This document shows, piece by piece, positions 12,873 through 51,501 of a stretch of 64,000 bases of DNA. Location: contig JAFWEV010000026.1 in NCBI GenBank assembly GCA_017512745.1, positions 11,377 through 75,376 on the forward strand. The letters are read 5' to 3'. The translations under genes were made by a program, and so were the position numbers. Position 1 is the first letter of the stretch. Every line of letters starts with the position of its first letter. Below the pieces are notes generated by a model that was not told where the DNA came from, did not search any database, and worked only from the letters and a program-made list of their open reading frames with translations. This stretch comes from Oscillospiraceae bacterium (GTDB lineage: Bacteria > Bacillota > Clostridia > Oscillospirales > Ruminococcaceae).

Positions 12873-12921
12873 CAGTATCAGCCAGTGCTGATTATACAGT
12901 CAAGATATGAGGATCCGAAAA

Positions 12922-13884
12922 ATGAATAGAACCGATAACGATAATAATTACATAGTCTGTGTGGGTTCCGCACTGGTGGATTGTATTGTTAAAGGATTTG
13001 ACCCCGAGCCGATTTCGGCATCGGGTTTTTTTGCTGCATCCGCGGAACTGTCAACAGGAGGAGAAGCTCTTAATCAGGCTGTCGCATTTACAAAGATGGG
13101 AAAGAAGGTCCGGATAGTCTGTTTTACGGGAGAAGATCACGCAGGGAATATAGTTGACAGCACTCTGAAACAGCATGGTATAGACATATCGTTTGTGAGA
13201 AAAGTACCCGAAGAGCATACACCTGTTGCTCTCATATTCACCGATGATACCGGAGACAGAAAGTCCGTCACCAATTCAGCTCACAGGTATAATTTTCATC
13301 CGGAGAGAGACATGTCGTATATGGACGGAGCTGCTGCCGTATCTCTCGGTTCGCTCTTCAGGGCTCCGTTTGACGATCCGCAGGTTGTTTATGAGATAGT
13401 AAGCGAAGCGAAAAAGAGAGGGCTTCCGGTATACGCGGATACAAAGCTGCTCATACTGAGCAGGTTATCGCTGGAGGATTTCAGGGATTCACTGTCGATG
13501 ATAGACTGCATATTCCCCAATGAGAAAGAGGGACGTTTCTATTCGGGGAAAGATGATCCGGAAGGGATGGCGGACGGATTTCTCAAATACGGAGTGAAGA
13601 GTGTCATAGTCAAGCTGGGATCTGAGGGATGTCTTTACAAAGACGGTGAAATGACGATAAGACTTCCCGGGCTTCCTGTTACAGCGGTAGACGCTACCGG
13701 AGCGGGAGATAATTTCGCCGCCGGGTTTATCTCGATGAGATCCGAGGGCAGAAGTATTGAAGAGTCGCTTCGCTTTGCAAACACGTGCGGGGCGCTGAGC
13801 ACGACCGTCATAGGTTCTGCCGGAGGAGTCAGAGACAGATCTCAGGTATTTGAGGCAATGGCGGCATTCTATGACCGATCATAG
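12922..13884 (+). CDS. PfkB-family carbohydrate kinase
   Basis: Contains VCVGSALVD...GGEALNQAVA and DATGAGDNFAAGF. GAGGA at 12909-12913 favours the ATG at 12922 over 12907. Confidence 0.8.
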   Translation: MNRTDNDNNYIVCVGSALVDCIVKGFDPEPISASGFFAASAELSTGGEALNQAVAFTKMGKKVRIVCFTGEDHAGNIVDSTLKQHGIDISFVRKVPEEHTPVALIFTDDTGDRKSVTNSAHRYNFHPERDMSYMDGAAAVSLGSLFRAPFDDPQVVYEIVSEAKKRGLPVYADTKLLILSRLSLEDFRDSLSMIDCIFPNEKEGRFYSGKDDPEGMADGFLKYGVKSVIVKLGSEGCLYKDGEMTIRLPGLPVTAVDATGAGDNFAAGFISMRSEGRSIEESLRFANTCGALSTTVIGSAGGVRDRSQVFEAMAAFYDRS

Positions 13885-15130: not shown

Positions 15131-15149
15131 AGGAGGGAGGACCTGAACT

Positions 15150-17543: not shown

Positions 17544-17786
17544 GGGATCACCTGAACAAAAGAGTGTTTTTGCCGAATCGATTTGTTTTATTATAACATC
17601 TCAAAAATATTTGACGCTGAAAAAAGCATATTATTTCACAATAGAAACTGAACTATGCATTTTTAACAATAAAAGCCGCAAATTTTATACACAGTCACTA
17701 TATCATATTTATTGAAGTTTCCTATAAAATATAAGTGTATTTGGCTTTGTATGTGCCAAAAAATAAAAATTTGGAAGAGGTATAAC

Positions 17787-19214
17787 ATGAAGGGAAAACA
17801 GTTACTGGCTCTTTTGCTTGCTGCTGTAATGATGCTTGGAATCCTTGCCGGATGCGGTGGCTCCGGAAATGAAACTCCTGCACCTGCATCTACTCCGGAT
17901 TCATCATCCGAGGGCGGCGAAGCAACAAACGACATCTCCGGAAAGTCTATTATTTTGATTTCATCTGCGAGATCTTATGACGGAATGGATGATGCGTATC
18001 AGGCAGCTTGTAAGCAGTTTTACGATGAGACTGGTTGTGAAGTCACAACACAGTTCAACGGAAACTTTACAGAGCTGATCCAGACATTCCAGGCAGCAAA
18101 GATCTCTGGCGCAACATATGATATGAGTTCTCTTGGTTCAGGAAACCTCCATCAGGCAGTTGCGAAGTCCGGAATGGTTATGGACATCACTCCGCTTGCA
18201 CAACAGCTCAAAGGCAGAATTGTTGAAGGCGGTATTGAGCAGCACACGATTGACGGACATACCTTCGGTATCCCGTTCAGCGGTGTATCCACCATGGGAT
18301 TCTTTGTAAACAGAACCATGCTTGACGAGCTCGGACTCGACCTCCAGAACGGCTACACATATGATGAACTCAAGGCAGTTGCCGATGCAGTCAAGGCTGC
18401 AAAGGGCTTTACAGCTGTTGTTCACTGTGGCGCTGACTGGTGGTGGTGGCCGTCTTGGTTCTTTACCACATTTGCTCAGGAGACACACAATGACTCCATC
18501 AATCAGATCGAAGAATGGCTGAAGGGCAACAGGAGCATGGAGCAGGAAGATGCTATCAATGCTTTCAATGATATCCTTAAGTTCTTCCAGGATGGAATCA
18601 TGGATGCTGATTCACTCCAGTATGACGGAACTTCCGTGGCAGCTCTCTTTGCTCAGCAGAAATGCTTAGGCTTCTTTGCTTCTGCAACAAACATCAAGAA
18701 TGTCGGCGATGTTGACTTTGACGTTGACTATCTCACATATCCTGTAATGGTTGAAGGAGCTATTGCTCAGTCTTCCGGCGGTGCTGACGAAGGTATCAAC
18801 ATTCTTACACTCGGAGATCCCGCAAACGTTGCAGCTTCTGCAAAGTTCATCGAGTTCATGACAAGACCGGAAGTCAATGGCCCGATCATGCAGCTCAGCG
18901 GAAACTTCGGATACGCAGTAAAGGGTGTTGACGGAGTTGAGTCTCAGATCTCTGATGAGGCATTCGAACTCTACACAGACAACACAATCATGTATCTTGA
19001 CTGGTTCTGGGCAGCAGAGCACAACGATGCAGTCGTTAAGGCGATCCAGGGCCTCGTAGCTCAGGAAATCGACGGTGCAGAAGCAGCAAAGCGCGTTCAG
19101 GACAACTGGCAGCAGACTGTTGATGAGAATGATTATTCTTATGAATGGTGGAATTCCGATTCTTGGAGTTGGGATGCTGTTGCAATGCCGTATGAGGTAG
19201 ATCTCGGACTTTGA
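17787..19214 (+). CDS. ABC sugar transporter substrate-binding lipoprotein
   Basis: The ATG at 17787 follows GGAAGAGG. The signal peptide has a lipobox (LGILAGC) and a Ser/Gly/Glu linker, and the fold is the family-1 solute-binding type. Confidence 0.85.
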   Translation: MKGKQLLALLLAAVMMLGILAGCGGSGNETPAPASTPDSSSEGGEATNDISGKSIILISSARSYDGMDDAYQAACKQFYDETGCEVTTQFNGNFTELIQTFQAAKISGATYDMSSLGSGNLHQAVAKSGMVMDITPLAQQLKGRIVEGGIEQHTIDGHTFGIPFSGVSTMGFFVNRTMLDELGLDLQNGYTYDELKAVADAVKAAKGFTAVVHCGADWWWWPSWFFTTFAQETHNDSINQIEEWLKGNRSMEQEDAINAFNDILKFFQDGIMDADSLQYDGTSVAALFAQQKCLGFFASATNIKNVGDVDFDVDYLTYPVMVEGAIAQSSGGADEGINILTLGDPANVAASAKFIEFMTRPEVNGPIMQLSGNFGYAVKGVDGVESQISDEAFELYTDNTIMYLDWFWAAEHNDAVVKAIQGLVAQEIDGAEAAKRVQDNWQQTVDENDYSYEWWNSDSWSWDAVAMPYEVDLGL

Positions 19215-19251
19215 TTTTGACAATTAGTGTCAAAAGTTTTATGTAAGTTTT

Positions 19252-19290
19252 TTCTGCCACTCACCACAGGGTGGGTGGCAGAACTTTTTA
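19252..19290 (+). terminator. Intra-operon hairpin/attenuating terminator after the binding-protein gene
   Basis: A 14-bp stem TTCTGCCACTCACC / GGTGGGTGGCAGAA has loop ACAG and is followed by CTTTTT. Confidence 0.7.
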
Positions 19291-19316
19291 AAAACCAGGT
19301 GGAGGTAGGCGAATAG

Positions 19317-20240
19317 ATGAGTGCAAAGTCAAAGGCACCTAAGAGCCCTCTGATGAGAGAGAGCATTGGGGATATGTTGTTTCCCTATCTGATGATAGTA
19401 CCGGCATTCCTCTTATTCATGGTTTTTACCATCTACCCGTTTGCATTCGGATTCTATGTAAGTTTCCATAAGTGGGACGGTCTTACAGCCATGAAATGGC
19501 TGGGGCTGAGGAACTACATAAATGTTGTGACTGACCCTGAATTCTGGGCTGCCATGAAACACACGGTCATCTACGCTTTATGTGTTACCATTGTCAAAAA
19601 CATTATCGCGGTTATCCTGGCACTGTTTCTGGCTAGAGACCATCTGCCGGGACGGACACTGTTCAGAACTGCTACATACTTGCCGGTAACCTTGTCCTAT
19701 GTTGTTATCGGTGTTCTCTGGAAATGGATATTTAACCCCACATTCGGTCTTTTGAATCCATTCATGCGTGCAATCGGTCTAGGCAATTACATTGTCGGAT
19801 GGTTAAGCGATGAAAGGATCGCATTGTATTCAGTTATCTTTGTTGATATATGGAAATGGATAGGTTTCCATATGGTCATGTACCTGGCAGGTCTGACCAG
19901 TATATCTAAAGACTACTATGAAGCTGCTGCTATTGACGGAGCTTCCGGATGGCAGCGTTTTAGACATATTACGGTTCCGCAGCTCAACAGTACAATATTC
20001 ACAAATATCCTCATGTCGATGAGTGGTGCGTTTACAGCAAACTACGCGATCGTCAACATGATGACGGGCGGCGGACCAAACGGCTCGACAGAAGTCGCAG
20101 CTACCTTAATTGTTAAGACCGGTCTTAAGTATATAAATCTCGGAAAAGCGAATGCCATGACATTTGTATTGTTCCTGTTTACGTTTGCAATGGGAATGTT
20201 CCAGCTTAAGACTATTTCACATGACGAGAACTACGAATAA
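19317..20240 (+). CDS. Carbohydrate ABC transporter permease (MalF/UgpA-like)
   Basis: A 6-TM protein with the EAA-type loop YYEAAAIDGASGWQRFRHITVPQL. Confidence 0.85.
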   Translation: MSAKSKAPKSPLMRESIGDMLFPYLMIVPAFLLFMVFTIYPFAFGFYVSFHKWDGLTAMKWLGLRNYINVVTDPEFWAAMKHTVIYALCVTIVKNIIAVILALFLARDHLPGRTLFRTATYLPVTLSYVVIGVLWKWIFNPTFGLLNPFMRAIGLGNYIVGWLSDERIALYSVIFVDIWKWIGFHMVMYLAGLTSISKDYYEAAAIDGASGWQRFRHITVPQLNSTIFTNILMSMSGAFTANYAIVNMMTGGGPNGSTEVAATLIVKTGLKYINLGKANAMTFVLFLFTFAMGMFQLKTISHDENYE

Positions 20241-20254
20241 GGGAGGCGGACATT

Positions 20255-21094
20255 ATGGTTGAATCTAAAAAATTCGAAGTCGGCTCTCTGGTTATATGCT
20301 ATATAATCATGGCTATAGTTCTTGTACTGACGGTGTATCCGCTTCTGTGGATGATCTTCAGTTCATGTAAAACAGTCAATGAGTTCTACTCGAACTCGTG
20401 GCTGCCCCCTGTCCAGTGGTATTTCGGCAATTTCATCACCGCCTGGACAAGAGCAAAGATGGGTGTCCGCTATCTGAACAGCCTTCTCATTACGGGAACA
20501 TATCTTCTGATCAATATTCCGGTATCAATGTGTGCTTCCTACTCTTTCTCGAGACTTCAGTTCAAGGGAAGGAAAAAGCTGTATACAGCAATGCTGTCGG
20601 GAATACTGATCCCGACAGGAGTTCTCACACTCCCCATCTATTCTGTTATGGTCAACTTCCGTCTTATCAATAACAGAATAGGTCTTGCATTCGTTTACGC
20701 CGGTATGTCTGTGGCGTTTTCCACATTCATCATGCATACGTTCTTCGTATCGCTGCCGAAAGGCCTGGAAGAAGCTGCAACGATTGACGGATGCTCCAGA
20801 TTCGGAGCTTTTGCCAGAGTCATTGTTCCTCTGACAAAACCCGGTATTATGATCCTGCTTATCTACAACGGTATTTCAAACTGGGGCGAATACCATTTGG
20901 CAAGCCTTGTTCTTACAACAAATGCCAAACAGACGGTTCCCGTCGGAATGGCTTTGTTCCAGGATAATCAGGCAATTGAATATACGGTTTTATTTGCAGC
21001 ATTAACGTTGGCTACAGTCCCGCTGGTTGTGCTATATGTTTTCTGCCAAAAGGCGTTCATTACAGGTATGACTGCTGGTGCTGTTAAAGGCTGA
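20255..21094 (+). CDS. Carbohydrate ABC transporter permease (MalG/UgpE-like)
   Basis: Contains the EAA loop LEEAATIDGCSRFGAFARVIVPLTKPG. Confidence 0.85.
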   Translation: MVESKKFEVGSLVICYIIMAIVLVLTVYPLLWMIFSSCKTVNEFYSNSWLPPVQWYFGNFITAWTRAKMGVRYLNSLLITGTYLLINIPVSMCASYSFSRLQFKGRKKLYTAMLSGILIPTGVLTLPIYSVMVNFRLINNRIGLAFVYAGMSVAFSTFIMHTFFVSLPKGLEEAATIDGCSRFGAFARVIVPLTKPGIMILLIYNGISNWGEYHLASLVLTTNAKQTVPVGMALFQDNQAIEYTVLFAALTLATVPLVVLYVFCQKAFITGMTAGAVKG

Positions 21095-38338: not shown

Positions 38339-38603
38339 CAAAAATAAATGACATATTTGTATATTGGAATTCATTGTATTCAGTTTCTTTTTTTAATATT
38401 ATTAATGTGTATTGGTATCAATACGTAACAGGCCACAGCAGAATTACTCCACCGAAAGTAATCTGTGCAGGCTGAAAAGAAGGGAGAAAAAAAGTCCGAT
38501 AACTCTCGGTGCGGCATTGGTGGAGACATGCCGTAATGCGTAGCCTTAACCGGAACGTGAGATACAGATTTTGCGGAGGCTGCTGTATCAGAGTTGCAAA
38601 AAG

Positions 38604-39803
38604 ATGGCGAGTGTAAGACTCTGTAACATTAAGAAGATCTATCCGAACGAAGAAAACAAGAAGAAGAAAAAAGTCAAAAAAGAAGATATGCCTATAATCG
38701 CAGAAGATGAAAAGGTAAATCTTCAGGTAACAGATGAAGGCGTTGTTGCGGTTCAGGAGTTCAATCTTGATATTGCTGATGGAGAATTCATTGTTCTGGT
38801 CGGACCTTCCGGATGCGGAAAGTCCACAACACTTCGTATGATAGCCGGATTGGAAAAAATTACAGAAGGCGAGTTGTATATCGGAGATAAGCTTGTCAAT
38901 TATCTTCCTCCGAAAGACAGAGATATTGCTATGGTTTTCCAGAACTATGCACTATATCCGCATATGACGGTATTTGAGAACATGGCTTTTTCTCTGAAAA
39001 TGAAGAAAACTCCTAAAGAAGAGATCGCTCAGAAAGTCAATGAGGCGGCTGAGATCCTGGGTATTACGGAATATCTGGACAGAAAGCCTAAAGCGCTTTC
39101 CGGCGGACAGCGTCAGAGAGTTGCGATCGGAAGAGCAATAGTAAGAAATCCGAAAGCTCTGCTTATGGATGAACCGCTGTCAAACCTTGATGCGAAACTC
39201 CGTAACCAGATGAGATCGGAGATCATCAAATTAAGAAATAAAATCAAAACAACATTTGTATATGTTACGCATGACCAGACCGAGGCTATGACTCTGGGCG
39301 ACCGTATCGTTGTTATGAAAGACGGATTTATCCAGCAGATCGGCACACCCCAGGAAGTATTTGATCACCCGGCAAACCTGTTTGTTGCAGGATTTATCGG
39401 TGTACCTCAGATGAACTTCTTCTCGAACCTTGAGCTCTATAAGGTTAACGGAAAGTTTGCAGTAAATATCGGAGGTAAAGAATTTATATTTACTGATGAG
39501 CAGCAGGCTTTGCTTGAAGCTAACGCAAAAGAAGGCCAGAAGATTATCGCAGGTGTACGTCCTGTTCATATTTCGCTTTCGGATTCGGAAAACGGATTTA
39601 AGACGATAATGGACGTTTCCGAGATGATGGGAAGTGAAATATATTTGCATCTTGATCTTGGTGACCAGGATGTCGTCTGCATTGTTCCGACTGCCGGACT
39701 TGATGTTTCCAGGTTCCAGCGCGGCAAAGAGATCTATCTTGATTGCGATCCTTCACTCATCCAGATATTTGATGCTGAAACAGAAAAGAGCCTTTTGATG
39801 TAA
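38604..39803 (+). CDS. msmX: MsmX/MalK/UgpC-type sugar ABC transporter ATPase (orphan, no adjacent permeases)
   Basis: Contains Walker [10 protein letters not shown], signature LSGGQRQR, Walker B LLMDEP, and a C-terminal TOBE-like domain. The Lys-rich insert [14 protein letters not shown] precedes the P-loop. Confidence 0.85.
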
Positions 39804-41303: not shown

Positions 41304-41359
41304 TCACATCTGCTCCCGGAAGGTTCCGGAAAGCATAACTATTGAAAGGATCAACAATA

Positions 41360-42106
41360 ATGGCAGCAAAAAAAGCTTTTATTTTCTACGGTGGATGGGA
41401 CGGACATGAGCCTGATCTGGTCAGCGCCAGATTCAAGAAGATGCTAGAAAATGAGAATTTTGAAGTTATCAGAGAAGACAGTCTGGACAGGCTTGATGAT
41501 CTGGAGTTCCTGAGAAGTTGTGACCTCATAGTACCGTGCTGGACACAGGGTGATCTCGATGATCCTAAGTGCTACAATGTCGCTGATGCAGTCCTTGAGG
41601 GAGTCGGACTTGCAGGGTGCCACGGCGGAATGTGCGATTCATTCAGATGGAGTGTTGAATGGCAGTTCATGACAGGCTCGCAGTGGGTATCTCATCCGGG
41701 TGATCCGTGGCTTCACCACTGTTCCAAGCTCACTCCGGAGAATCTGGAATACAACCGCAAATACAATCCTGATTCCGGAAAACCCGGTGCATTCTGGACA
41801 CATTACACGGTCAACTTCAAAAAGAATTCATCTTCTCCGCTTATTGCCGGACTTGATGATTTTGAAGTGTATACGGAACAGTATTATCTGCACGTTGATC
41901 CGTGCATCGATGTCTTGGCTTCCACCAGGGTGAGGACGGCAGGACCTCATGCGGCCAACGGCGAAGTGGACATGCCGGTCGTCTACACAAAGATGTGGGG
42001 CAAGGGCAGAGTTTTCTACAACTCTCTCGGACATCATGATGATATCTTTGATATCCCGCAGGTATCCGAAGTTCAGAGGAGAGGATTCCTCTGGGCTACA
42101 AGATAA
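41360..42106 (+). CDS. ThuA-domain protein, third and diverged copy
   Basis: Contains FIFYGGWDGHEP, GLAGCHGGMCDSF, EQYYLHVDP and YNSLGHHDD, shared with the two copies at 34.5-36.1 kb. Confidence 0.65.
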   Translation: MAAKKAFIFYGGWDGHEPDLVSARFKKMLENENFEVIREDSLDRLDDLEFLRSCDLIVPCWTQGDLDDPKCYNVADAVLEGVGLAGCHGGMCDSFRWSVEWQFMTGSQWVSHPGDPWLHHCSKLTPENLEYNRKYNPDSGKPGAFWTHYTVNFKKNSSSPLIAGLDDFEVYTEQYYLHVDPCIDVLASTRVRTAGPHAANGEVDMPVVYTKMWGKGRVFYNSLGHHDDIFDIPQVSEVQRRGFLWATR

Positions 42107-42163
42107 AAAAGTAAAATGAAAAATTTCTGAAAGCAATTCAGAGAAAAATATGGAGGCAAATCT

Positions 42164-43138
42164 ATGAAGTGTAAAGGCGTATTTGTTGAAGACTACATGA
42201 AGCTCGGTATCCGTGATTACGAAGTACCGGAAATGGCTGCAGATCAGGTCCTCATCAAGACAATGGCAACAGGACTCTGCTGCTGGGACAGCTGGCTCTA
42301 CCGTGGAGTAAGTGCACCCGGCCCGTATCCGTATGTCATGGGACATGAGGGAACAGGAATTGTAGAAAAAGTCGGAAGTCTTGTAAAGAATCTTAAACCT
42401 GGTGACTATGTATCAAGCATCAGCGGCGGCGCTATGGCTGAGTATGATGTTATCGATGCAAAAGCACTGATCAAACTTCCGAATGATGTCAAGGATTGGG
42501 GAAGAGTGGTTTATGAACCGACAGCTTGTGTTGTTAACCTTCTCCAGAAGAGTGAGATCATGATGGGCGACCATGTCGTTCTTGTCGGAGCTGGTTACAT
42601 GGGCACACTGTGCCTTGAAGGCCTTACAAGATGCTCACAGGCAGGACGTATCACTGTTTTCGAGATCAGAGATGACAGAGTCGAGATGGCCAAGAAATAC
42701 GGTGCAACAGAGGTTCTTAATCCTGAGAGCGAAGAAGGAAAGAAGTGCATCGAAGAGATCAAGGCAGCAGGCGGCTGCGATGTAGCAATCGATTTCGGCG
42801 CATCCGTATCCGGATATGATCTTGCAAACTCTCTCGTTCGCCAGGGCGGAAAGTTTATCATCGGATCATTCCATCGCACAGACATGACATTCTTCGGACC
42901 CGATTGGCATCTCGGTGGCAAGCATGTTCTCAATCTGCCTCCTCAGAGCAATCCGTATCATTTCAAAGAGTGGACACCGAGAGTTGATACACTCATCAAG
43001 AAGGGTGTCTTCACACCTGGAGATCTTGTCACACATGAAGCATACTTCGAGGATATGGACGCAATGGAGTTCATGTTCCAGAGAGCATGTGACAAGGGCG
43101 ATGATTACATGAAAGGCGCAATCCTGTTTTACAAATAA
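42164..43138 (+). CDS. Zinc-type medium-chain dehydrogenase/reductase (MDR)
   Basis: Contains GLCCWDS...GHEGTGIV (the Zn-ligand region) and VLVGAGYMG (Rossmann motif). Confidence 0.8.
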   Translation: MKCKGVFVEDYMKLGIRDYEVPEMAADQVLIKTMATGLCCWDSWLYRGVSAPGPYPYVMGHEGTGIVEKVGSLVKNLKPGDYVSSISGGAMAEYDVIDAKALIKLPNDVKDWGRVVYEPTACVVNLLQKSEIMMGDHVVLVGAGYMGTLCLEGLTRCSQAGRITVFEIRDDRVEMAKKYGATEVLNPESEEGKKCIEEIKAAGGCDVAIDFGASVSGYDLANSLVRQGGKFIIGSFHRTDMTFFGPDWHLGGKHVLNLPPQSNPYHFKEWTPRVDTLIKKGVFTPGDLVTHEAYFEDMDAMEFMFQRACDKGDDYMKGAILFYK

Positions 43139-43158
43139 TCAGTACCCTGTATGATTCA

Positions 43159-43189
43159 GTGCTTGGCAGAATGCACTTCTGCCAAGCAC
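43159..43189 (+). other. Intercistronic perfect 12-bp hairpin
   Basis: GTGCTTGGCAGA-ATGCACT-TCTGCCAAGCAC with no U-tract. It lies inside the spurious N-terminal extension of the next ORF. Confidence 0.65.
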
Positions 43190-43219
43190 TACATAACTAA
43201 TAAGGAGAGTATCTATAGA

Positions 43220-44089
43220 ATGGAAGATTTGTTCCCACGCACAATGGTCGGCGGCGTTTCAGTCCCGAGAATGCTTGCAGGGTGCAACTGGATATCCGGA
43301 TGGAGTCATAGAAGTCCCGCACAGGATAAGATGATCCAGGCTGTTCACAGCACTCCGGACAGTGTTGCGGATATTTTTGAAGTGTTTATGAATCAGGGTG
43401 TCGATGCATGTCTTGGCCTGTTCAATGTCGACACAGACCTTATTGATGCCGTTAAGATGGCTGAAGACAGAACCGGCAAAAAGATGATAATCTTTGATAC
43501 ACCGGTACTTAATGTAGATGACAATCCAATTGCGAGAATGGAAGCGGAAGAGGCGATAAAGAAGTGTGCTGAAAGAGGCGCTACTTTCTGCCTGCCGATC
43601 CACTCCTGTGTTGAGCAGTTGGTTAATAAGAATAAAAAGACTATCGAGAGATTGCCGGATTATCTCAAGATGATACGTGATCACGGAATGATCCCGGGAC
43701 TTTCAGCCCATATGCCGGAAATAGTTCATTACTCTGATGAGAATGAATATGATGTAGAAACTTATATACAGATCTATAACTGTATGGGATTCCTGATGCA
43801 GGTCGAAATCGAGAGTGTTGCAAAGACGATACATAATGCCAAGAAGCCTGTCATCGCTATCAAACCCTGTGCAGCCGGCAGAGTCACACCGTATGTCGGT
43901 CTGAACTTCGTATATAACACGATCAGAGATATTGATATGGTTGCTATAGGCTGTTTCAAACCGTTCGAAGCAGCAGAGGATCTGGAATACGCGAGAGCAG
44001 CTCTTGAGAGAAGAATGCCTGAAATAGCTTCCAGAGGAAGCCCGGTCGTAACGCCGGCTATCGAAGGAAAGATCAATCATCACGACTGA
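43220..44089 (+). CDS. Conserved-looking protein of unknown function (289 aa)
   Basis: AAGGAGAG lies 9 nt upstream of the ATG at 43220. The composition and codon usage are coding-like, and no family was recognised. Confidence 0.6.
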   Translation: MEDLFPRTMVGGVSVPRMLAGCNWISGWSHRSPAQDKMIQAVHSTPDSVADIFEVFMNQGVDACLGLFNVDTDLIDAVKMAEDRTGKKMIIFDTPVLNVDDNPIARMEAEEAIKKCAERGATFCLPIHSCVEQLVNKNKKTIERLPDYLKMIRDHGMIPGLSAHMPEIVHYSDENEYDVETYIQIYNCMGFLMQVEIESVAKTIHNAKKPVIAIKPCAAGRVTPYVGLNFVYNTIRDIDMVAIGCFKPFEAAEDLEYARAALERRMPEIASRGSPVVTPAIEGKINHHD

Positions 44090-44130: not shown

Positions 44131-44166
44131 CCTGTCGCAGCATCACCATGCTGCGGCAGGTTTTTT
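44131..44166 (+). terminator. Rho-independent terminator
   Basis: A 13-bp stem CCTGTCGCAGCAT / ATGCTGCGGCAGG (one G-U pair) has loop CACC and is followed by TTTTTT. Confidence 0.85.
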
Positions 44167-44261
44167 GATGGAAGGATTATGTATACGGTATTTTCAAAAC
44201 TGCAAAAATGTGAGACAATATGTGCTGTAAATGTTCGTTCCGGGAAGGATGGAATCGGAGC

Positions 44262-44412
44262 GGATATAGCGCCAGGCCCCAAGAGGGTGACGAGGTTTGG
44301 CAGTTGTCGAAAGACTCGGCGGATGCTGCCACGGCTTATATTCAGGTGAGTCGTAAGAGAGAAAAGAAAAAGCGGAATCAAAACCGTAACAGAGATTCTC
44401 TTAACACTGTAT
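44262..44412 (+). ncRNA. glmS RNA: glmS ribozyme (GlcN6P-dependent self-cleaving riboswitch)
   Basis: The conserved core reads in order: A/GCGCC (cleavage site at about 44268/44269), the P1 hairpin CCCC-AAGA-GGGU, GACGAGG, the P2 helix UGGCAG...CUGCCA enclosing UUGUCGAAAGACUCGGCGGAUG, then CGG. The downstream A-rich P3/P4-like region has AAGAGA/TCTCTT pairing. Confidence 0.85.
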
Positions 44413-44494
44413 ATGAGACATTCCATGACAGGGACTTATGTCTTATGTCAATTTGGTTATGTCTTATCAATATTACAGATTAGGAGTTTTTATT

Positions 44495-45298
44495 ATGCGA
44501 GTAGTTATACAGGAAAATTACGAAAATATGTGCAAGTGGGCAGCGGATTATATCGCTGCCAAGATCAAAGCTCATAACGAAGGACCGGAAAAGGACCGCC
44601 CGTTTGTCTTAGGTCTTCCCACAGGCTCTTCTCCCATAGGAGTATATAAGGAACTGGCAAGACAGAATCAGGCAGGCGAATTGAGTTTCGCAAATGTCGT
44701 CACATTCAATATGGATGAATATCTGGGTCTTCCTCATGAGCATGATCAGAGCTACTGGTATTTCATGCATGACAACTTCTTCGACCATCTCGTGGATATG
44801 AAGCCGGAGAATATCAACATCCTCAACGGTATGACCGACGATCCTGAAGGCGAGTGCAGGAGATATGAGGAGAAGATAGCTTCCTACGGCGGAATAGATT
44901 TGTTCATGGGAGGAATCGGTGTCGACGGACATATAGCATTCAATGAGCCGTTCACGTCTCTTACATCAAGAACCGGTGTCCGCAATCTGACAACAGATAC
45001 AAGGATCGTAAACTCCCGCTTCTTCGGAAACGATCCGGAAAAAGTTCCGTCTCAGGCTCTTTCCGTAGGTGTCGGAACAGTTACGGATTCAAAAGAAGTT
45101 CTTATCCTTATCAACGGTCACAACAAGGCGAGAGCTCTTGCTGCGACAGTTGAGGGCAGCGTGAGCCACAAGTGGACATGCTCAGCTCTTCAGATGCATA
45201 ACGGCGCTATCATTGCCTGCGACGAGGCTGCATGCGGAGAACTCATGGTAGACACATATAAGTATTTCCTCGATATTGAGAAGAAAGAGAGACTTTAA
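44495..45298 (+). CDS. nagB: Glucosamine-6-phosphate deaminase/isomerase (E. coli-type NagB)
   Basis: Contains [39 protein letters not shown] and [11 protein letters not shown], and is collinear with E. coli NagB. TAGGAG lies upstream of the ATG. Confidence 0.9.
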
Positions 45299-45301
45299 TA
45301 G

Positions 45302-45964
45302 ATGTATACAATTAAGGATCTTTATGACCTTGATCACACACTGGCAAAGGACTATCTCCTCAAATACACATATCCGTGGGAGGCACTCAAGGGAATAAAG
45401 GAATTTATCCTTGAACTCGGCCCTACACTCGGAGATGAGTACGAGGAGAGAGAACCTCAGGTCTGGGTCCACAAGACCGCAAAGATCTATCCTTCGGCGT
45501 ATCTCGGTGCGCCGTGTATCATAGGGCCCAATACAGAGGTCCGTCACTGCGCATTCATAAGGGGATCTGCTCTTGTGGGGGCCGACTGTGTAGTCGGAAA
45601 CTCGGTGGAACTCAAGAACGTCATCCTTTTTGACCATGTGCAGACACCGCATTACAACTATGTAGGCGATTCGATCCTCGGATACTTCAGCCACATGGGC
45701 GCAGGTTCAGTAACTTCCAATGTTAAGAGCGACAAAAAGCTTGTCGTTGTCCATAACGGATCGGAAAACATAGAAACAGGCGTCAAAAAGTTCGGCGCTA
45801 TGCTGGGCGATTACGTCGAAGTAGGCTGCAATGCAGTCTGCAATCCGGGAACAGTCATCGGAAGACATTCGAACGTCTACCCGACATCATGTGTTCGCGG
45901 GGTCGTTCCCGAGAACAGCATTTGGAAAGACAGCGGCGTTGTAGTAAGCAAGGAGGATCGTTAA
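45302..45964 (+). CDS. Left-handed beta-helix (hexapeptide) acyltransferase, GlmU C-terminal-domain-like
   Basis: Hexapeptide repeats are present. HYNYVGDSILG...GAGSVTSNVK...GDYVEVGCNAVCNPGTVIG resembles the GlcN-1-P N-acetyltransferase domain of GlmU. No nucleotidyltransferase domain is present. Confidence 0.6.
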   Translation: MYTIKDLYDLDHTLAKDYLLKYTYPWEALKGIKEFILELGPTLGDEYEEREPQVWVHKTAKIYPSAYLGAPCIIGPNTEVRHCAFIRGSALVGADCVVGNSVELKNVILFDHVQTPHYNYVGDSILGYFSHMGAGSVTSNVKSDKKLVVVHNGSENIETGVKKFGAMLGDYVEVGCNAVCNPGTVIGRHSNVYPTSCVRGVVPENSIWKDSGVVVSKEDR

Positions 45965-45965
45965 C

Positions 45966-47312
45966 ATGGGAAAGTATTTCGGAACTGACGGATTCAGAGG
46001 CGAGGCGAATAAGGATCTCACCTTTGAGCACGCGATAAAGATCGGCCGTTTCCTCGGCTGGTACTACGGTGCTAATCAGGGCAAGACAGCAAAGATCGTA
46101 ATCGGCAAGGATACGAGAAGAAGTTCGTATATGTTTGAATATGCACTCTGCACGGGCCTTATGGCAAGCGGCGCAGACGCATATATCATGCATGTCACAA
46201 CGACCCCTTCGGTCGCATACATTACTAGAGTCGATGATTTTGACTGCGGTATCATGATCTCCGCATCCCATAACCCGTACTATGACAACGGCATCAAGCT
46301 GCTCAACGGCAACGGCGAGAAGATGGACGAAGAGACCATCCTCAAAGTCGAGGATTATATCGACGGCAAGATAGAAGTGCCGGTAGCAGGCAGGGAGAAC
46401 ATCGGAAGAACGGTAGACTATGTTGCAGGAAGAAACCGCTATATAGGTCACCTTATCTCCATGTCAAAGTACAGCTTCAAGGATGTCAAGGTAGGTCTCG
46501 ATGTAGCGAACGGCGCCGCATGGCAGATCGCAAAGGGCGTATTCGACGCGCTCGGTGCAAAGACATATGTCATGAACGATCATCCGGACGGCTACAACAT
46601 CAACACTGACTGCGGAAGCACTCATATCGAGCACCTGCAGAAATTTGTTGTGGATAACGGTCTTGATATCGGATTTGCATATGACGGAGACGCCGACAGA
46701 TGTCTTACTGTTGACGAGAAGGGCAATGTCGTAACAGGCGACCATACTCTCTATATCTACGGTCTCTACATGAAAGAGCGCGGAAAACTGCTCAATAATA
46801 CAGTCGTCACGACAGTCATGAGCAACTTCGGACTGTACAAGGCGCTCGACAAAGTCGGCATCGACTATGAGAAGACTAAAGTCGGCGACAAGTATGTATA
46901 TGAGAACATGATCGAGAACGGTCACCGCATCGGCGGTGAGCAGAGCGGACATACGATCTTCTCAAAGTATGAGACGACGGGAGACGGTATCCTTACAAGC
47001 CTTAAACTCATGGAGGTCATGCTCGCAAAACAGAAACCTATGAGCGAGCTTGCAGCACCCGTGGTGTTCTATCCTCAGGTCCTCAAGAACGTCAGGGTAA
47101 AATCAAAACCGGAAGCGCAGAACGATCCCGATGTTCAGGCTGCAGTCAAGAAAGTTGCAGATCAGCTCGGAGATACAGGACGCATTCTCGTTCGCGAGAG
47201 CGGTACGGAACCTGTGATCCGTGTTATGGTTGAGGCTGAAAGCGATGAACTCTGTGAGAAACTGGTCGACTCCGTGATTGAAGTCATTACAGCAAAAGGA
47301 CATCTAGCCTGA
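45966..47312 (+). CDS. glmM: Phosphoglucosamine mutase
   Basis: Contains KYFGTDGFRG, the active-site loop SASHNPYYDNGIK, GFAYDGDADR and GGEQSGH. Confidence 0.9.
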   Translation: MGKYFGTDGFRGEANKDLTFEHAIKIGRFLGWYYGANQGKTAKIVIGKDTRRSSYMFEYALCTGLMASGADAYIMHVTTTPSVAYITRVDDFDCGIMISASHNPYYDNGIKLLNGNGEKMDEETILKVEDYIDGKIEVPVAGRENIGRTVDYVAGRNRYIGHLISMSKYSFKDVKVGLDVANGAAWQIAKGVFDALGAKTYVMNDHPDGYNINTDCGSTHIEHLQKFVVDNGLDIGFAYDGDADRCLTVDEKGNVVTGDHTLYIYGLYMKERGKLLNNTVVTTVMSNFGLYKALDKVGIDYEKTKVGDKYVYENMIENGHRIGGEQSGHTIFSKYETTGDGILTSLKLMEVMLAKQKPMSELAAPVVFYPQVLKNVRVKSKPEAQNDPDVQAAVKKVADQLGDTGRILVRESGTEPVIRVMVEAESDELCEKLVDSVIEVITAKGHLA

Positions 47313-47331: not shown

Positions 47332-47380
47332 AAGCCTGCTCATATATGCGCTGACTGTGCATATATGGGCAGGCTTTTGT
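47332..47380. terminator. Bidirectional terminator between convergent glmM and the MATE gene
   Basis: An 18-bp stem AAGCCTGCTCATATATGC / GCATATATGGGCAGGCTT is flanked by A-rich and T-rich tracts. Confidence 0.85.
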
Positions 47381-47392: not shown

Positions 47393-48754
47393 TTAAGAGT
47401 CTTTGGTCAGGTTCTTGAGCCATCTCATTCGTAGAACGGCTATAAGACCTACCATTGCCTTGAGAGGCATATCTATCCTGTTTATCGCAACTACCGCGAT
47501 CGCCGGAAGATGCCACTTGAATGCGGCGAGCCATCCGAGAGGTATGGCGATACCCCACATTACAACTATGTCGGTCCAGAAACCTATATGACCGGAACCG
47601 CCCGCGCGGAGCACTCCGACCAGCGCCATGATCTCAAATGCCTGACAGAAGATATTCGCCGCGAACACATACATCATGGCTTTCGCAAGAGCTGCGGTTT
47701 CGACTGAGATGTTATACAGAAGAATGAAGTACCTGCCCGTCAGAATAAGCATCAATGCGGAGAATATACCGAGAATAAGGGCCAGGAGCATCGTCGATCT
47801 GGAAGCCTGTTTAGCTCCTTCTATATCGTCCGAGCCGAGGATCTTTCCGACTATTGTGCTTGTCGACTTGCCCGCTCCGGATATGAGAGATTCGATGAGA
47901 TAATCGAAATTGTAGCAGATGTTGTACGCAGTGACTGCCGCCGTACTCAGCTGTCCGGTTATGATGGAGCCCATCGAGTTCGCAAAGCTCCAGGTGACAT
48001 CGTGGGCAAATACCGGTTTTATAACTGCAATATAGTGCTTAAGCATCTGTTTGTCGCGGGAGAAAATATCTTTTATGGTCACGCCGATACGCCTGTCTTT
48101 CCCGAGAGCTGTAATAGTGTAGACGAGGTCTGTGAATCTTCCGCAGAGATAACCTATGGCAGCGCCAGCGACGCCCATTTTCGGCAGACCGAGTTTTCCG
48201 AAGATCAGGATGAAGTTGACCAGCAGATTTATGGGATAGGATATAAGGCTGCCGTACAGGTAAAGAGTCGGCCTCTCCAGAGACGATTCGACCTGGTAAA
48301 TGATCGTTGAAATGGCATGGAAGAATAAGCCTACCGCCACGATCCTCAGGTAGATGATCCCCATATCAATGACTGCGGGATCTGAGCTGAAGATCCGCAT
48401 AAGCAGCCTCGGAGCGGTGAGAAACAGTGTCGAGAAACATACCGTTACGAGGAAACCTGTCCGCAGCGCGATACCAAATATCGACCTTATGGATTTAGTG
48501 TCGTTTTTGCCCCAGTACTGTGCTGAGAGGATCCTCCCTGCGCCGGATACCGACATTATAAAAGTATTGAAGATAGCGACTATATTAATGGCCTGTGTCG
48601 ACGCGGCGATCTCTATCTCGCCGAACCGTCCGAACATCAGGCTGTTTATTATATTCACTCCGTACAGAAGAAGCTGCTGGACCGTCAGGGGCAGCATCAG
48701 TCTCCATATCCACTTTCTGAATTCAGGATTCCTTAAAGAATAGTTTTCAAGCAT
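47393..48754 (-). CDS. MATE-family efflux transporter
   Basis: A 12-TM protein of 453 aa with a MATE-like N-terminus (LMLPLTVQQLLLYGVNIINSLMFG). Confidence 0.85.
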   Translation of the reverse strand: MLENYSLRNPEFRKWIWRLMLPLTVQQLLLYGVNIINSLMFGRFGEIEIAASTQAINIVAIFNTFIMSVSGAGRILSAQYWGKNDTKSIRSIFGIALRTGFLVTVCFSTLFLTAPRLLMRIFSSDPAVIDMGIIYLRIVAVGLFFHAISTIIYQVESSLERPTLYLYGSLISYPINLLVNFILIFGKLGLPKMGVAGAAIGYLCGRFTDLVYTITALGKDRRIGVTIKDIFSRDKQMLKHYIAVIKPVFAHDVTWSFANSMGSIITGQLSTAAVTAYNICYNFDYLIESLISGAGKSTSTIVGKILGSDDIEGAKQASRSTMLLALILGIFSALMLILTGRYFILLYNISVETAALAKAMMYVFAANIFCQAFEIMALVGVLRAGGSGHIGFWTDIVVMWGIAIPLGWLAAFKWHLPAIAVVAINRIDMPLKAMVGLIAVLRMRWLKNLTKDS

Positions 48755-48838
48755 GATCCGATCTGAAACCTTTATATTATTAACCTAGAACAGTTTATTA
48801 GTTAGGCTCTTTTTTTGCAAGACTCGGGGTGATTAATG

Positions 48839-48868
48839 TTGTATGGCAGTCGCGGTATTAGGTATAAT
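48839..48868 (+). promoter_or_regulatory. Putative sigma-A promoter of the trpF-like operon
   Basis: TTGTAT, an 18-nt spacer, then TATAAT. It lies about 40 nt upstream of the GGAGG RBS at 48897. Confidence 0.45.
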
Positions 48869-48909
48869 TTAAGTGTGAAAATATGCGTAAAAAAACGGAG
48901 GTAAGTCTT

Positions 48910-49602
48910 ATGATCACTCAAATATACGGCTGTGCCGGAATCGAAGATGTAATGCTTTGCTCTAAGCTCGGAGTGGATAATGTAGGAATAAGTTTCGGAG
49001 ATGTCAAACACTTAGGCCCGCATCAGAGGACCGCTGCTGAGTGCAGAGATTTCTTCGCTCTCTTCCCGGACAATATCACAAAAGTCGGTCTTACGATCGC
49101 GTCGGACGTAGACGAGATCATCCATGACCTTTCCATCTGCATGCCGGATATATATCACCTCTCCGGTGATATCGAGAATATTCCGCCTGAGGAAGTCGAG
49201 AGGATAAGAAAGGCTTATCCCGAGCTCAAGATCATGCAGGCTATCCCGGTACTCGGCGGGGTGCCCCTTGAGGAGCAGAAAGTCCTGAAACTCATCAAGG
49301 ACTACGAAGAGGTGACGGATTTCTTCCTCATCGACACAAAGGATCTCTCGAGCGAGATAGGCATCGGCGCAACAGGCGCAATCCACGACAGATATATAGA
49401 CAAGGCGATCGTTGAGAGCACAAAGGTCCCGTGCATAATCGCGGGCGGACTTGACGCTTCCAATGTCGCGGAAGCCATCCATATCGCGCATCCGTACGGT
49501 GTAGATTCCTGCACGCTCACAAGCTGGGACAGAAGCACCGGCAAGCGCGGAAAAGATCCTGTAAAGCTTGAAGCTTTCGTGAGGGCCGCACAGAATGCCT
49601 GA
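48910..49602 (+). CDS. TrpF-fold (phosphoribosylanthranilate isomerase-like) protein outside any trp context
   Basis: Collinear with TrpF: QIYGCAG versus KICGIT, FLIDTK versus LLDTK, IAGGLDASNV versus LSGGLNPENV, and YGVDS versus FAVDVSS. The canonical catalytic Cys position is occupied by Tyr. Confidence 0.6.
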   Translation: MITQIYGCAGIEDVMLCSKLGVDNVGISFGDVKHLGPHQRTAAECRDFFALFPDNITKVGLTIASDVDEIIHDLSICMPDIYHLSGDIENIPPEEVERIRKAYPELKIMQAIPVLGGVPLEEQKVLKLIKDYEEVTDFFLIDTKDLSSEIGIGATGAIHDRYIDKAIVESTKVPCIIAGGLDASNVAEAIHIAHPYGVDSCTLTSWDRSTGKRGKDPVKLEAFVRAAQNA

Positions 49603-50572
49603 CAGATACTCTAAAGCAATAGTTCTGGGAGATGCGTGCGTCGATATGACGATAAAGCTCCCGCATTTCAAAGACGGCAGGATGGAGAATTTCGAGAATC
49701 CGTCACTTGCCGGCGGCGGCACATGCGCAAATACCGCGGTGGCGCTGTCAAAACTCGATGTTGATACGGCGTTCATGGGAACGGTCGGACAGGATTCCTT
49801 CGGAAGATATCTTATAGATGAATTCGAATCCATGGGCATCGACAGGGAATTCGTTCAGGTCGACCCGGAATCGGATACTGTATGCTGTTTTGCATTTCTC
49901 GATGACACAGGTGAGAGACATATCTGGGGCTGGCCAAAGAAGAGACAGTCATATACTCAGCTGGACCTCTCAAAGATAAATCTTGAGAAACTGAAGACCG
50001 CGTCATGGCTGCATGCTTCCGGTATGAACTATCTCGCCGACGGACCCATGCGTACGATAATGCCGTATCTGTTCAAGGTGGCGTTTGAAGCGGGAGTACC
50101 CACATCCCTGGATCTCAACACCAGAACCAACACGCCGGAAGAACTGGATCCGGAGATAAAGAAGGCGGTACTGGCGACTGTTCCGTACTGCACATATTTC
50201 ATGGGTTCCGCAAAAGACGAGTTCTACAGTCTCTATCCCTGTGATGACTGGCGCGACAGCGTGAGACACTTCGTGGCTCCCGGAAGAACTGTCGTCGCGC
50301 GCTCCGGCTCGGAAGGGTCATGGGTGTTCACTCCGGAAGGAGAGGAGTTTGCAGTCCCGGCATATAAGGTGACTGCGGTCAACACGACAGGCGCGGGAGA
50401 CTCGTTCAACGCAGGCTTTGTAGCAGGTATACTTCACGGAAAAAACGTTAAGGATGCCGTTAGATGGGGCAGCGCCGTTGCCGCATATAAAGTGTCGCAC
50501 GGCGGATCCAGGGCAACGCCTGATCTTGACGGACTCAGGGAATTCTTCGGATCGTACGGTGAAGAGGCATAA
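49595..50572 (+). CDS. PfkB-family carbohydrate kinase
   Basis: Contains LGDACVD, GGGTCANTAVAL and NTTGAGDSFNAGF. It overlaps the upstream gene by 8 nt. Confidence 0.8.
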   Translation: MPDRYSKAIVLGDACVDMTIKLPHFKDGRMENFENPSLAGGGTCANTAVALSKLDVDTAFMGTVGQDSFGRYLIDEFESMGIDREFVQVDPESDTVCCFAFLDDTGERHIWGWPKKRQSYTQLDLSKINLEKLKTASWLHASGMNYLADGPMRTIMPYLFKVAFEAGVPTSLDLNTRTNTPEELDPEIKKAVLATVPYCTYFMGSAKDEFYSLYPCDDWRDSVRHFVAPGRTVVARSGSEGSWVFTPEGEEFAVPAYKVTAVNTTGAGDSFNAGFVAGILHGKNVKDAVRWGSAVAAYKVSHGGSRATPDLDGLREFFGSYGEEA

Positions 50573-50577
50573 GTCTG

Positions 50578-51501
50578 ATGGCAAAGGAAAAGAATAACAG
50601 CAAAAGCCTGATGGCTACTATCGCCGGACTTGCGGGAATATTCATCTGGGGCGTCAGCACATTCTTTACGAGATCTCTCACAGAGAGCCTCGGCATATTC
50701 ACACAGGCTGCCATAACCGCATTTTTCGGGGGAGTCGTCTCTCTCATAATGCAGGCTATTGGCGGAGACCTCAAGGGCAACATAAAGAGAGCGCCGAAGC
50801 TCTACTGGCTGATCACCATACCGCTGTATATGGTATACAAGATATCCGTATCGATGGCTGTCGGCGCGGCGGCGGACCGCTCGCAGGTGCTAACATCCAA
50901 CCTCATAAGCCAGATGTGGCCGCTCATGACATTGGTATTCACGGTGGTCATATTCAGAAATAAGATAAAGAAACTGTTCCCCATAGGAGTTCTCATACCC
51001 GCGCTTGGACTTCTTGTGGCCAATTCCGGGAAGAATTTCGATATAGGATCCATATTCATAAATATAGGCAAGGCATGGCTTCCGTGCTTCTTTGCGCTGC
51101 TCTCCGCAGTGGCATGGGGACTCTATTCAAATCTGTCGAGAAAGATCACGATGGGGCTCAATGCCGGGTGCGTCGGTATCCTCATGATGGTGTCGGGCGT
51201 TGTCTGCGAGATAATCGCGATCACAAGGCATGAGGTCCCGCACTTTACCTGGGATGCCATGGGAAGCCTGCTGTTCTCCGTAATAGCGGTTGCAGGCGCG
51301 GCGACATTCTTCTGGGATCTCGCGATGAGAAACGGCAATTCGATGCTCGTGATCGTAGTGTCGAACTTCCTTCCGGTCATATCCTCCATACTCTCGGCAT
51401 GGCTTCTCGGAGTCAGCATTGAGGTGTCGCTCATAGTCGGCGCGTTCATGGTCGTCATTGGAACGATAATCTCCAAGAAGTGTATCCTGGAGGAAAAGTG
51501 A
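50578..51501 (+). CDS. EamA/DMT-family transporter
   Basis: A 10-TM protein of about 300 aa with two EamA-like halves. Confidence 0.7.
   Translation: MAKEKNNSKSLMATIAGLAGIFIWGVSTFFTRSLTESLGIFTQAAITAFFGGVVSLIMQAIGGDLKGNIKRAPKLYWLITIPLYMVYKISVSMAVGAAADRSQVLTSNLISQMWPLMTLVFTVVIFRNKIKKLFPIGVLIPALGLLVANSGKNFDIGSIFINIGKAWLPCFFALLSAVAWGLYSNLSRKITMGLNAGCVGILMMVSGVVCEIIAITRHEVPHFTWDAMGSLLFSVIAVAGAATFFWDLAMRNGNSMLVIVVSNFLPVISSILSAWLLGVSIEVSLIVGAFMVVIGTIISKKCILEEK

Follow-up and report, generated by a model that had tools for sequence, protein, structure and literature searches.

The stretch analysed here, 64,000 nucleotides of contig JAFWEV010000026.1 from an Oscillospiraceae bacterium (assembly GCA_017512745.1; hereafter the window), carries a glmS ribozyme upstream of three genes encoding a NagB-type glucosamine-6-phosphate (GlcN6P) deaminase/isomerase, a stand-alone left-handed beta-helix acetyltransferase (hereafter LbH) and the phosphoglucosamine mutase GlmM. 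With intergenic gaps of 3 nt between nagB and LbH and 1 nt between LbH and glmM, the three genes form, as read from the sequence, a tightly packed operon between flanking terminators. The features of the locus, in window coordinates, are the following:

44131..44160, with a T-run to ~44166, + strand: intrinsic terminator of the upstream gene and 5' limit of the transcription unit, a 13-bp GC-rich stem followed by TTTTTT
44167..44256, + strand: inferred promoter region, no hexamers assigned, the sole non-coding stretch between terminator and ribozyme
44257..44412, + strand: glmS ribozyme (RF00234), expected cleavage between A44268 and G44269; full-length model match (61.2 bits) and covariation in 33 orthologous copies
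44482..44486, + strand: nagB Shine-Dalgarno sequence AGGAG, 8 nt ahead of the nagB ATG (44495), as read from the letters
44495..45298, + strand: nagB, encoding a GlcN6P deaminase/isomerase of the hexameric NagB-I type whose allosteric segment is remodelled (TIGR00502, 380.7 bits)
45302..45964, + strand: LbH, stand-alone left-handed beta-helix acetyltransferase of the GlmU C-terminal/ST0452 type (TIGR03992, 140.9 bits)
45966..47312, + strand: glmM, phosphoglucosamine mutase (TIGR01455, 535.1 bits; four PGM/PMM domains)
47332..47376, + strand: terminator-like hairpin ending the operon, a 20-bp stem followed by a T-rich tail
47393..48754, - strand: MATE transporter gene, convergent with glmM and the next gene after the operon

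When the whole window was scanned against Rfam at gathering thresholds, only two matches were returned, RF00234 (the glmS ribozyme) and the malK-I motif RF03069. The RF00234 match (E 1.2e-11, gathering score 37 bits) spans model positions 1-167 of 167 and is therefore not truncated. Aligned to the consensus, the elements of the RNA follow each other in the correct order, namely P1 (GCCC/GGGU), GACGAGG, P2 (UGGCA/UGCCA), P3, P4 and P4.1, with P2 enclosing UCGA-AAGAC-UCGGCGGAUG. The catalytic and ligand-binding core, composed of AGCGCC (cleaved after its first A), GACGAGG and UCGGCGGAUG, is located at 44268-44334, and the start of AGCGCC at 44268 is what sets the expected scissile bond. By every structural criterion tested the RNA belongs to RF00234, and its core leads us to expect self-cleavage. 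Its context is not the usual one, since the first gene downstream is nagB and not glmS. A first-pass annotation, made by a model from the letters of the sequence, had already described a strong terminator ahead of the leader, a glmS ribozyme core with its parts in the right order and AGCGCC at 44268, an E. coli-type NagB instead of GlmS as the first product, and a GlmU-C-like acetyltransferase and glmM following at gaps of 1-3 nt; the covariance-model search, the protein family and structure matches and the coordinates bear out each of these points.

The same layout of ribozyme, nagB, LbH and glmM was found on other metagenome contigs carrying LbH. Scanning one genome per GTDB species with LbH yielded 596 relatives, of which the best 80 (83-90% identical) were analysed, gene order being determined by tblastn and ribozyme presence by nhmmer. 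These 80 species-level loci come nearly all from ruminant-gut metagenome-assembled genomes (MAGs), mostly of Clostridia, with taxonomic labels that are heterogeneous and possibly unreliable; two of them belong to cultured isolates, Ruminococcaceae bacterium YRB3002 and P7. A ribozyme lies ahead of the nagB/LbH/glmM cluster in 56 of these best 80 loci, in the following arrangements (RZ, ribozyme):

RZ-NagB-LbH-GlmM: 38 species-level loci
RZ-NagB-LbH (contig ends): 4 species-level loci
RZ-LbH-NagB-GlmM: 7 species-level loci
RZ-LbH-GlmM-NagB: 3 species-level loci
Ribozyme-led variants including GlmS or cut short: 4 species-level loci

The ribozyme thus keeps its 5' place in the cluster while the genes behind it are reshuffled (of the 24 remaining loci, 7 are cut off upstream). 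Rfam confirmed the nhmmer calls in 14 out of 14 positive loci tested, all reaching the gathering score (37.7-71.4 bits), and the ribozymes of the two isolates score 59.2 bits (YRB3002) and 40.7 bits (P7). In an alignment of 33 ribozyme copies built on Rfam-derived helices, the catalytic core is invariant, 93.8% of the helix cells are paired as compared with 34-49% with slid partners, and changes on both sides occur in 16 of 30 pairs (132 cells), a covariation score that none of 500 shuffles reached. Covariation is found in helices P1, P2, P2a, P3, P4 and P4.1; the P2.1/P2.2 pseudoknots are invariant and so uninformative in this respect. These paired cells and compensatory changes indicate that the RNA fold has been kept by selection in the nagB context, and the recurrence of this RNA ahead of the same genes in most of the loci shows that its association with nagB is not due to chance. 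The structural claim of the first-pass annotation therefore extends well beyond the window, to dozens of species.

We also surveyed metagenomes with the pattern AGCGCC-N(10-40)-GACGAGG-N(10-24)-TCGNCGG, which proved too permissive to give a usable frequency of downstream genes: 76 of the 80 loci retrieved were chance matches, mostly from soil, and the 4 genuine ribozymes include three ahead of glmS (L127, L140 and L161) and one ahead of nagB-LbH-glmM (L131). A 27-kb metagenome contig (L003) contains two glmS ribozymes (L003:669-2949 and L003:8955-11786), one ahead of LbH-GlmM without nagB, encoding proteins 84% and 90% identical to those of the window, and the other ahead of NagB-LbH-GlmM; this is a genuine duplication or else a chimera of the assembly.

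The window NagB (267 amino acids, aa) clearly exceeds the TIGR00502 cutoff of 236.9 bits, and a PDB search places it closest to the hexameric allosteric enzymes 7lqm, 3hn6 and 5hj5 (E 1e-95 to 1e-100 for 7lqm, 3hn6 and 1cd5). The E. coli enzyme 1cd5, matched at E 2e-95, is much nearer to it than the monomeric Bacillus/Streptococcus type. We aligned 79 operon-linked NagB orthologs to E. coli NagB, using a reference sequence identical to PDB 1cd5. The catalytic and phosphate-binding residues Asp72, Asp141, His143, Glu148, Arg172 and Lys208 are invariant in all of them, with the exception of a single H143R. The segment of residues 150-161, which we take to make up face A within the allosteric site for N-acetylglucosamine-6-phosphate (GlcNAc6P), with Arg158, Ser151 and Thr161 presumably among the residues of that site as in the E. 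coli NagB crystal structures, is altered in 79 out of 79 orthologs (A150F/Y, S151T, R158G, K160R and T161N/D). Lys160, Tyr254 and the N-terminus have roles in the GlcNAc6P allosteric site of NagB (PMC4008608). All 79 proteins retain Met1 and Tyr254, as well as the C-terminal helix, and none has the complete E. coli-type site, T151, G158, R160 and N/D161 taking the place of the E. coli residues throughout.

This remodelling appears to be a property of the clade. We searched 1.84 billion proteins exhaustively and compared the best 150 representatives (50% identity clusters): the hexameric-type NagB proteins among them almost all read SRT-R-x-K-T-L, the G-V-R-[DN] motif is confined to fragments of the rumen clade's own cluster, and one unrelated protein carries a different variant, RTGLVT. 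The nearest canonical relative is a Bacteroidaceae NagB (P0123; L211-L215) with 65% identity and the canonical allosteric motif, encoded by a stand-alone gene with neither ribozyme nor glmM or LbH neighbours. We considered this context as a contrast for the direction of the reaction and set it aside, as a stand-alone gene says nothing on direction. As the closest NagB outside the rumen clade, the Bacteroidaceae protein hints that the Clostridia lineage may have come from Bacteroidota by transfer. These alignments set the operon-linked NagB apart as a lineage of its own, in which the active site is intact and the regulatory pocket rebuilt, a change that might be expected if feed-forward activation by GlcNAc6P, an intermediate of catabolism, were no longer wanted.

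The second protein of the operon, LbH, is a hexapeptide-repeat protein of 220 aa. Its match to TIGR03992, the model of archaeal bifunctional GlmU, is confined to positions 215-393, and in bacterial GlmU models it likewise matches the C-terminal parts; family-model scans found no nucleotidyltransferase (NTP_transferase) domain in it, so that it is not a bifunctional GlmU. Among solved structures, that of the C-terminal domain of Sulfolobus ST0452 comes closest (5z09/2ggo, E 6e-22), and GlmU ranks next. The residues H117, Y120, N140, K145, E103 and K105 are invariant in 91 copies, the first three aligning with H308, Y311 and N331 of ST0452 and E103-x-K105 corresponding to the GlmU-type E-x-K. 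LbH therefore probably possesses an active site of the glucosamine-1-phosphate (GlcN1P) N-acetyltransferase type, GlcN1P being its likely substrate. Since LbH is devoid of a nucleotidyltransferase domain, the uridylyltransferase step must be encoded outside it, and no uridylyltransferase adjoins the cluster in the loci inspected, among which the neighbours in L062/L055 and in Ruminococcus albus were checked. Two candidates were rejected: the downstream open reading frame (ORF) in L062/L055 is F420-ligase-like, and the R. albus neighbour is an NTP_transf_5 protein. The third protein, GlmM (448 aa), scores above the TIGR01455 cutoff of 447.55 bits and has all four PGM/PMM domains, and its GIMISASHNP phosphoserine loop is present in 75 out of 75 orthologs.

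What surrounds the cluster bears on the role of NagB. Our window survey combined the L001 annotation for ~35-56 kb with Pfam searches of most remaining large ORFs, outside ~32-35 kb. Apart from the operon, the genes of the window serve plant-glycan utilisation and polysaccharide synthesis, and the survey revealed no nagA, N-acetylglucosamine (GlcNAc) transporter, glmS or glmU. Nor did a nag-regulon catabolic context emerge: neither this survey nor the recurrent neighbours of the 80 loci include nagA, a GlcNAc/GlcN transporter or a NagC/NagR regulator. The flanks themselves vary: none of the 80 loci (L010-L089) shares the genes flanking the operon in the window (41342-44089 and 47393-51501), and even the most recurrent flanking families are limited to 7 of the 80 loci, with identities of 45-74%, as compared with 83-94% for the cluster proteins. 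Such a conserved cluster in variable flanks suggests either very strong purifying selection or the horizontal spread of a cassette. The MAG labels of the 80 loci span several families. Within the window, the cluster shows no GC or compositional anomaly. cdaA (DAC) and cdaR (YbbR) are found a short way upstream of seven ribozyme-free NagB-GlmM-LbH loci, and other cluster loci abut polysaccharide-biosynthesis genes. The cdaA-cdaR-linked loci are L055, L062, L074, L075, L080, L085 and L070 (e.g., L055:479-6660), and in them an ORF resembling F420-0:gamma-glutamyl-ligase comes next.

From these elements we propose the following mechanism. A transcript starting within 44167-44256 would carry the ribozyme leader, nagB, LbH and glmM. 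As long as GlcN6P is scarce, the mRNA would remain intact and the three enzymes would be made. NagB, running against its textbook direction, would then form GlcN6P from fructose-6-phosphate (Fru6P) and free ammonium, GlmM would convert GlcN6P into GlcN1P, and LbH would use acetyl-CoA to turn GlcN1P into GlcNAc-1-phosphate, an effectively irreversible step that would pull both earlier equilibria forward. Once GlcN6P accumulates, it would serve as the cofactor for self-cleavage at the predicted bond, the downstream RNA with its 5'-OH would be degraded and the operon would be switched off. Such a route would need no glutamine and would save the ATP of glutamine synthetase, which fits the ammonia-rich rumen. 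We infer the direction of the NagB flux, the substrate of LbH and the decay of the mRNA after cleavage; in canonical systems, GlcN6P is the cofactor of glmS ribozyme cleavage, which leads to mRNA decay and feedback repression (PMC6765202).

That the ribozyme feedback-regulates the nagB-LbH-glmM operon seems to us very probable. The full reading, a ribozyme-repressed operon in which NagB works as an anabolic, ammonium-dependent GlcN6P synthase, is favoured with a probability of roughly 0.6. It is supported by the conserved and covarying ribozyme, by the remodelled pocket combined with intact catalysis, by the lack of catabolic partners, by the linkage to cdaA-cdaR and polysaccharide synthesis and by the presence of nagB and glmS in one operon in some relatives.

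Several observations weigh against this reading, starting with the thermodynamics of NagB, which favour deamination. On the side of feasibility, the reaction is readily reversible (Keq ~0.2 M) and runs anabolically in some systems, with a Km for NH4+ of 3.7 mM in the bovine enzyme and of 31 mM, an unfavourable value, in that of E. coli (PMC11593775). With deamination favoured and such a high Km, an anabolic NagB needs millimolar ammonium and a downstream pull. With 1 mM Fru6P and the 10-20 mM ammonium of rumen-like conditions, equilibrium GlcN6P would be ~50-100 micromolar. GlmM and the acetyl-CoA-driven LbH would exert this pull on the flux, which would explain why the three genes travel together behind a GlcN6P sensor. 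Also unfavourable are the outcome of a strict sigma-70 consensus scan, which found no promoter between 44167 and 44256, where the transcription start is most likely placed, and the nature of the evidence on the NagB allosteric site, where the effect of the changes is deduced from sequence alone. Moreover, 17 loci with at least 500 nt of upstream DNA have no ribozyme detectable by nhmmer, Rfam or core motifs. Diverged ribozymes were considered in the ribozyme-negative loci and rejected, given that neither Rfam matches nor core motifs were found.

The remaining difficulty concerns GlmS. According to tblastn, GlmS is encoded nowhere in the 64-kb window; GlmS-type genes (GATase plus SIS domains) nevertheless accompany the cluster, inside it or within 6 kb, in 8 of the 80 relatives, and also occur in R. 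albus, so that NagB is not demonstrably the sole source of GlcN6P. A canonical ribozyme-glmS pair may exist elsewhere in the source genome, and the NagB route may be an alternative route to GlcN6P and not the only one. In the relatives, GlmS is placed as follows:

L033: RZ-LbH-NagB-GlmM-GlmS, GlmS at the downstream end of the cluster after a 13-nt gap
L011: RZ-NagB-LbH-GlmM-GT2-GlmS, GlmS at the downstream end
L040, L076 and L087: GlmS at the downstream end, no ribozyme
L077, L082 and L013: GlmS upstream of the cluster

nagB and glmS consequently share a single operon, led by a ribozyme in L033 and probably in L011 and lacking one in L040, L076 and L087, which argues that nagB is regulated like a synthase. 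In L077 (L077:7-1745), GlmS is encoded directly ahead of the ribozyme (GlmS-RZ-LbH-NagB-GlmM), which places this RNA between cistrons or at the start of a second transcript and leaves glmS outside its control. Two R. albus strains have a ribozyme-free glmS-LbH pair in exopolysaccharide (EPS) clusters (L009:8152-11821 and L090:8152-11922), in which a canonical 612-aa GlmS is followed by an LbH paralog (86% identical to that of the window) and the NTP_transf_5 protein; LbH can thus pair with either GlmS or NagB. These EPS clusters lie near transposase or integrase genes. The cluster-adjacent GlmS copies have a median pairwise identity of 65% (range 44-90%), as opposed to 85-88% for NagB, LbH and GlmM of the same GlmS-bearing genomes, and a GlmS homolog search found at most 75% identity to the L033 GlmS outside its own species. 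Because of this contrast, GlmS looks like a patchwork accessory beside a conserved three-gene core.

The presence of these GlmS-type genes, together with an equilibrium that favours deamination and the high Km of the E. coli enzyme for ammonium, makes a homeostatic or catabolic NagB a serious rival, although we regard it as unlikely. The operon would then mainly supply GlmM and LbH, GlcN6P would come from a GlmS encoded elsewhere or from amino-sugar salvage, NagB would buffer or bleed the pool and the ribozyme would tune the pathway to the supply of GlcN6P. However, a bleed valve that is shut exactly when GlcN6P is high is illogical, and it would be odd to repress GlmM and LbH while their substrate is plentiful, unless it is the operon's own product. 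A catabolic NagB is equally difficult to reconcile with neighbourhoods in which, in the window survey and among the recurrent neighbours, nagA, transporters and NagC/NagR-type regulators are missing, with the remodelling of the GlcNAc6P activator site in every ortholog, and with the patchwork character of the adjacent GlmS beside a far better conserved cluster.

A catabolic NagB and GlcN6P sensing would be reconciled by an inverted logic, in which cleavage stabilises or activates the mRNA and GlcN6P induces NagB catabolism and salvage by GlmM and LbH. This appeal is indirect, nothing direct speaks for it, and we hold it to be highly improbable: the core is identical to that of canonical OFF-acting glmS ribozymes, ON logic would be perverse in L033, where the ribozyme heads an operon that ends in glmS, and we know of no ON-acting glmS ribozyme. 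Hardly credible at all is that the RNA is misassigned or a decaying, non-regulatory remnant of a former ribozyme-glmS unit, for which the 17 species with a ribozyme-free cluster could be invoked, in view of the full-length match in the window, the gathering score reached in all loci tested, the invariant core, the compensatory changes in over half of the pairs and the 5' position kept despite gene-order shuffling.

Returning to NagB as an anabolic synthase, a bolder version of that reading can be advanced tentatively, with the odds somewhat against it. The NagB lineage, freed from GlcNAc6P activation, might be the primary, ammonium-dependent GlcN6P synthase of a large group of ruminant-gut Clostridia, having displaced GlmS from its place behind the ribozyme and forming, with GlmM and LbH, a compact three-gene cassette for a glutamine-independent hexosamine pathway, possibly spread horizontally. 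That the cassette may move between rumen lineages is suggested by the high identity of its proteins combined with the few loci that share flanks. GlmS would then be an accessory enzyme, for example for EPS synthesis or at low ammonia.

The rest of the window and its relatives provided some additional observations. The malK-I RNA motif (RF03069; 38428-38609, + strand; 94.1 bits against a gathering score of 60.3) is directly upstream of a gene for an ATP-binding cassette (ABC) transporter ATPase (38571-39803; ABC_tran and TOBE_2 in the L001 annotation), the context expected for this motif. At 12907-16316 (+ strand), a PfkB-family kinase gene is followed by genes for two SIS-domain-only proteins (426 and 388 aa) and adjoined by a sugar ABC transporter (17712-21094), a module resembling a unit for fructosamine deglycation or sugar-phosphate catabolism. 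The two SIS proteins, weakly similar to the isomerase domain of GlmS, were considered as a hidden GlmS and discarded: their scores of 43-48 bits fall short of the cutoff of ~400, and a glutaminase domain is missing. At 41-7389 (+ strand), surface-polysaccharide genes encode a Polysacc_synt flippase fragment, a pyruvyl transferase, a thiamine pyrophosphate enzyme, a short-chain dehydrogenase/reductase, and galactofuranosyltransferase-like and chain-length-determinant-like proteins, which would consume nucleotide sugars in the same genome region. In L072, a Clostridiales-1 RNA (RF01699, 99.5 bits; L072:4439-4605, + strand) precedes the ribozyme by ~1.2 kb.

The glmS ribozyme is the textbook example of a ribozyme that uses a metabolite as cofactor and has been described as dedicated to glmS; here it has a widespread and conserved exception, which shows the RNA to be a portable GlcN6P sensor, rewired to another enzyme that would make the same metabolite. 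If this is correct, the regulatory logic labels a NagB lineage as a synthase and points to an ammonium-dependent entry into hexosamine and peptidoglycan synthesis in abundant fibre-degrading rumen bacteria. This bears on the nitrogen economy of the rumen, on metabolic reconstructions that score GlcNAc auxotrophy or call NagB catabolic, and on antibacterial strategies aimed at GlmS or at the glmS ribozyme. The clade-specific R158G/K160R pocket would offer a natural test case for what becomes of allostery in an enzyme whose physiological direction is reversed. Since the cultured isolates P7 and YRB3002 carry the operon, the hypothesis is directly testable.

As for known systems, a review describes glmS as the sole target of the glmS ribozyme (PMC6765202), and the supplement to the RegPrecise regulon survey gives glmS as the only regulated gene (PMC3766115). 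In the full-text literature we found no report of a glmS ribozyme combined with nagB, a deaminase, glmM or Ruminococcus in such an arrangement, isolated mentions in dedicated distribution surveys remaining possible. The window RNA resembles the canonical ribozyme of B. subtilis and other Gram-positive bacteria in its family, its invariant core (AGCGCC, GACGAGG, UCGGCGG and the A-rich elements of P4) and its location in a 5' leader, and GlcN6P-triggered self-cleavage with feedback repression is presumed to be the same; it differs in regulating nagB, a stand-alone LbH and glmM instead of glmS. P1 is short in the nagB/LbH-linked ribozymes (4 bp and a loop of ~5 nt), whereas the glmS-linked ribozymes of L161, L127 and L140 have a long P1 (~25 nt extra) but an otherwise identical core.

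With the E. coli-type hexameric NagB (1cd5/1dea/1fs5), which is catabolic and activated by GlcNAc6P, the window protein shares family, length, catalytic residues, C-terminal helix, Tyr254 and Met1. Its clade differs by F/Y150, T151, G158, R160 and N/D161, and its gene is located outside a nag catabolic operon, together with biosynthetic genes behind what is predicted to be a product-sensing OFF switch. Anabolic use of NagB homologues has precedents, such as Giardia Gln6PI in encystation, and overexpression of nagB suppresses E. coli glmS mutants. Mammalian GNPDA likewise catalyses the same reversible reaction, fixing NH4+ into GlcN6P (PMC11593775). These cases are eukaryotic or laboratory-artificial, whereas the window has a dedicated and conserved bacterial operon with a riboregulator predicted to sense GlcN6P. 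LbH has in common with GlmU and the archaeal ST0452/MJ1101-type enzymes the left-handed beta-helix domain with the acetyltransferase motifs E-x-K, H..Y and N..K, but is only 220 aa long and lacks their nucleotidyltransferase domain.

In Firmicutes, cdaA and cdaR are the partners of the housekeeping glmM, forming in B. subtilis a cdaA-cdaR-glmM(-glmS) module. The seven ribozyme-free loci just downstream of cdaA and cdaR recall this module; they differ in that glmM has nagB and LbH on its two sides instead of a ribozyme-glmS unit after it, and in that two opposite-strand genes intervene. The nearest conceptual parallel is found in Faecalibacterium prausnitzii, where a GlcN6P-modulated hepatitis delta virus (HDV)-like ribozyme precedes glmM (Passalacqua et al. 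2017, cited after PMC6765202). It is also a self-cleaving RNA ahead of a non-glmS gene of the UDP-GlcNAc pathway in a gut relative within the Clostridia, but it belongs to another ribozyme class, GlcN6P modulates it allosterically instead of serving as its catalytic cofactor, and nagB and LbH play no part. What is new here is a known sensor with a new regulon and, by implication, an alternative entry into the pathway through a distinctive NagB lineage.

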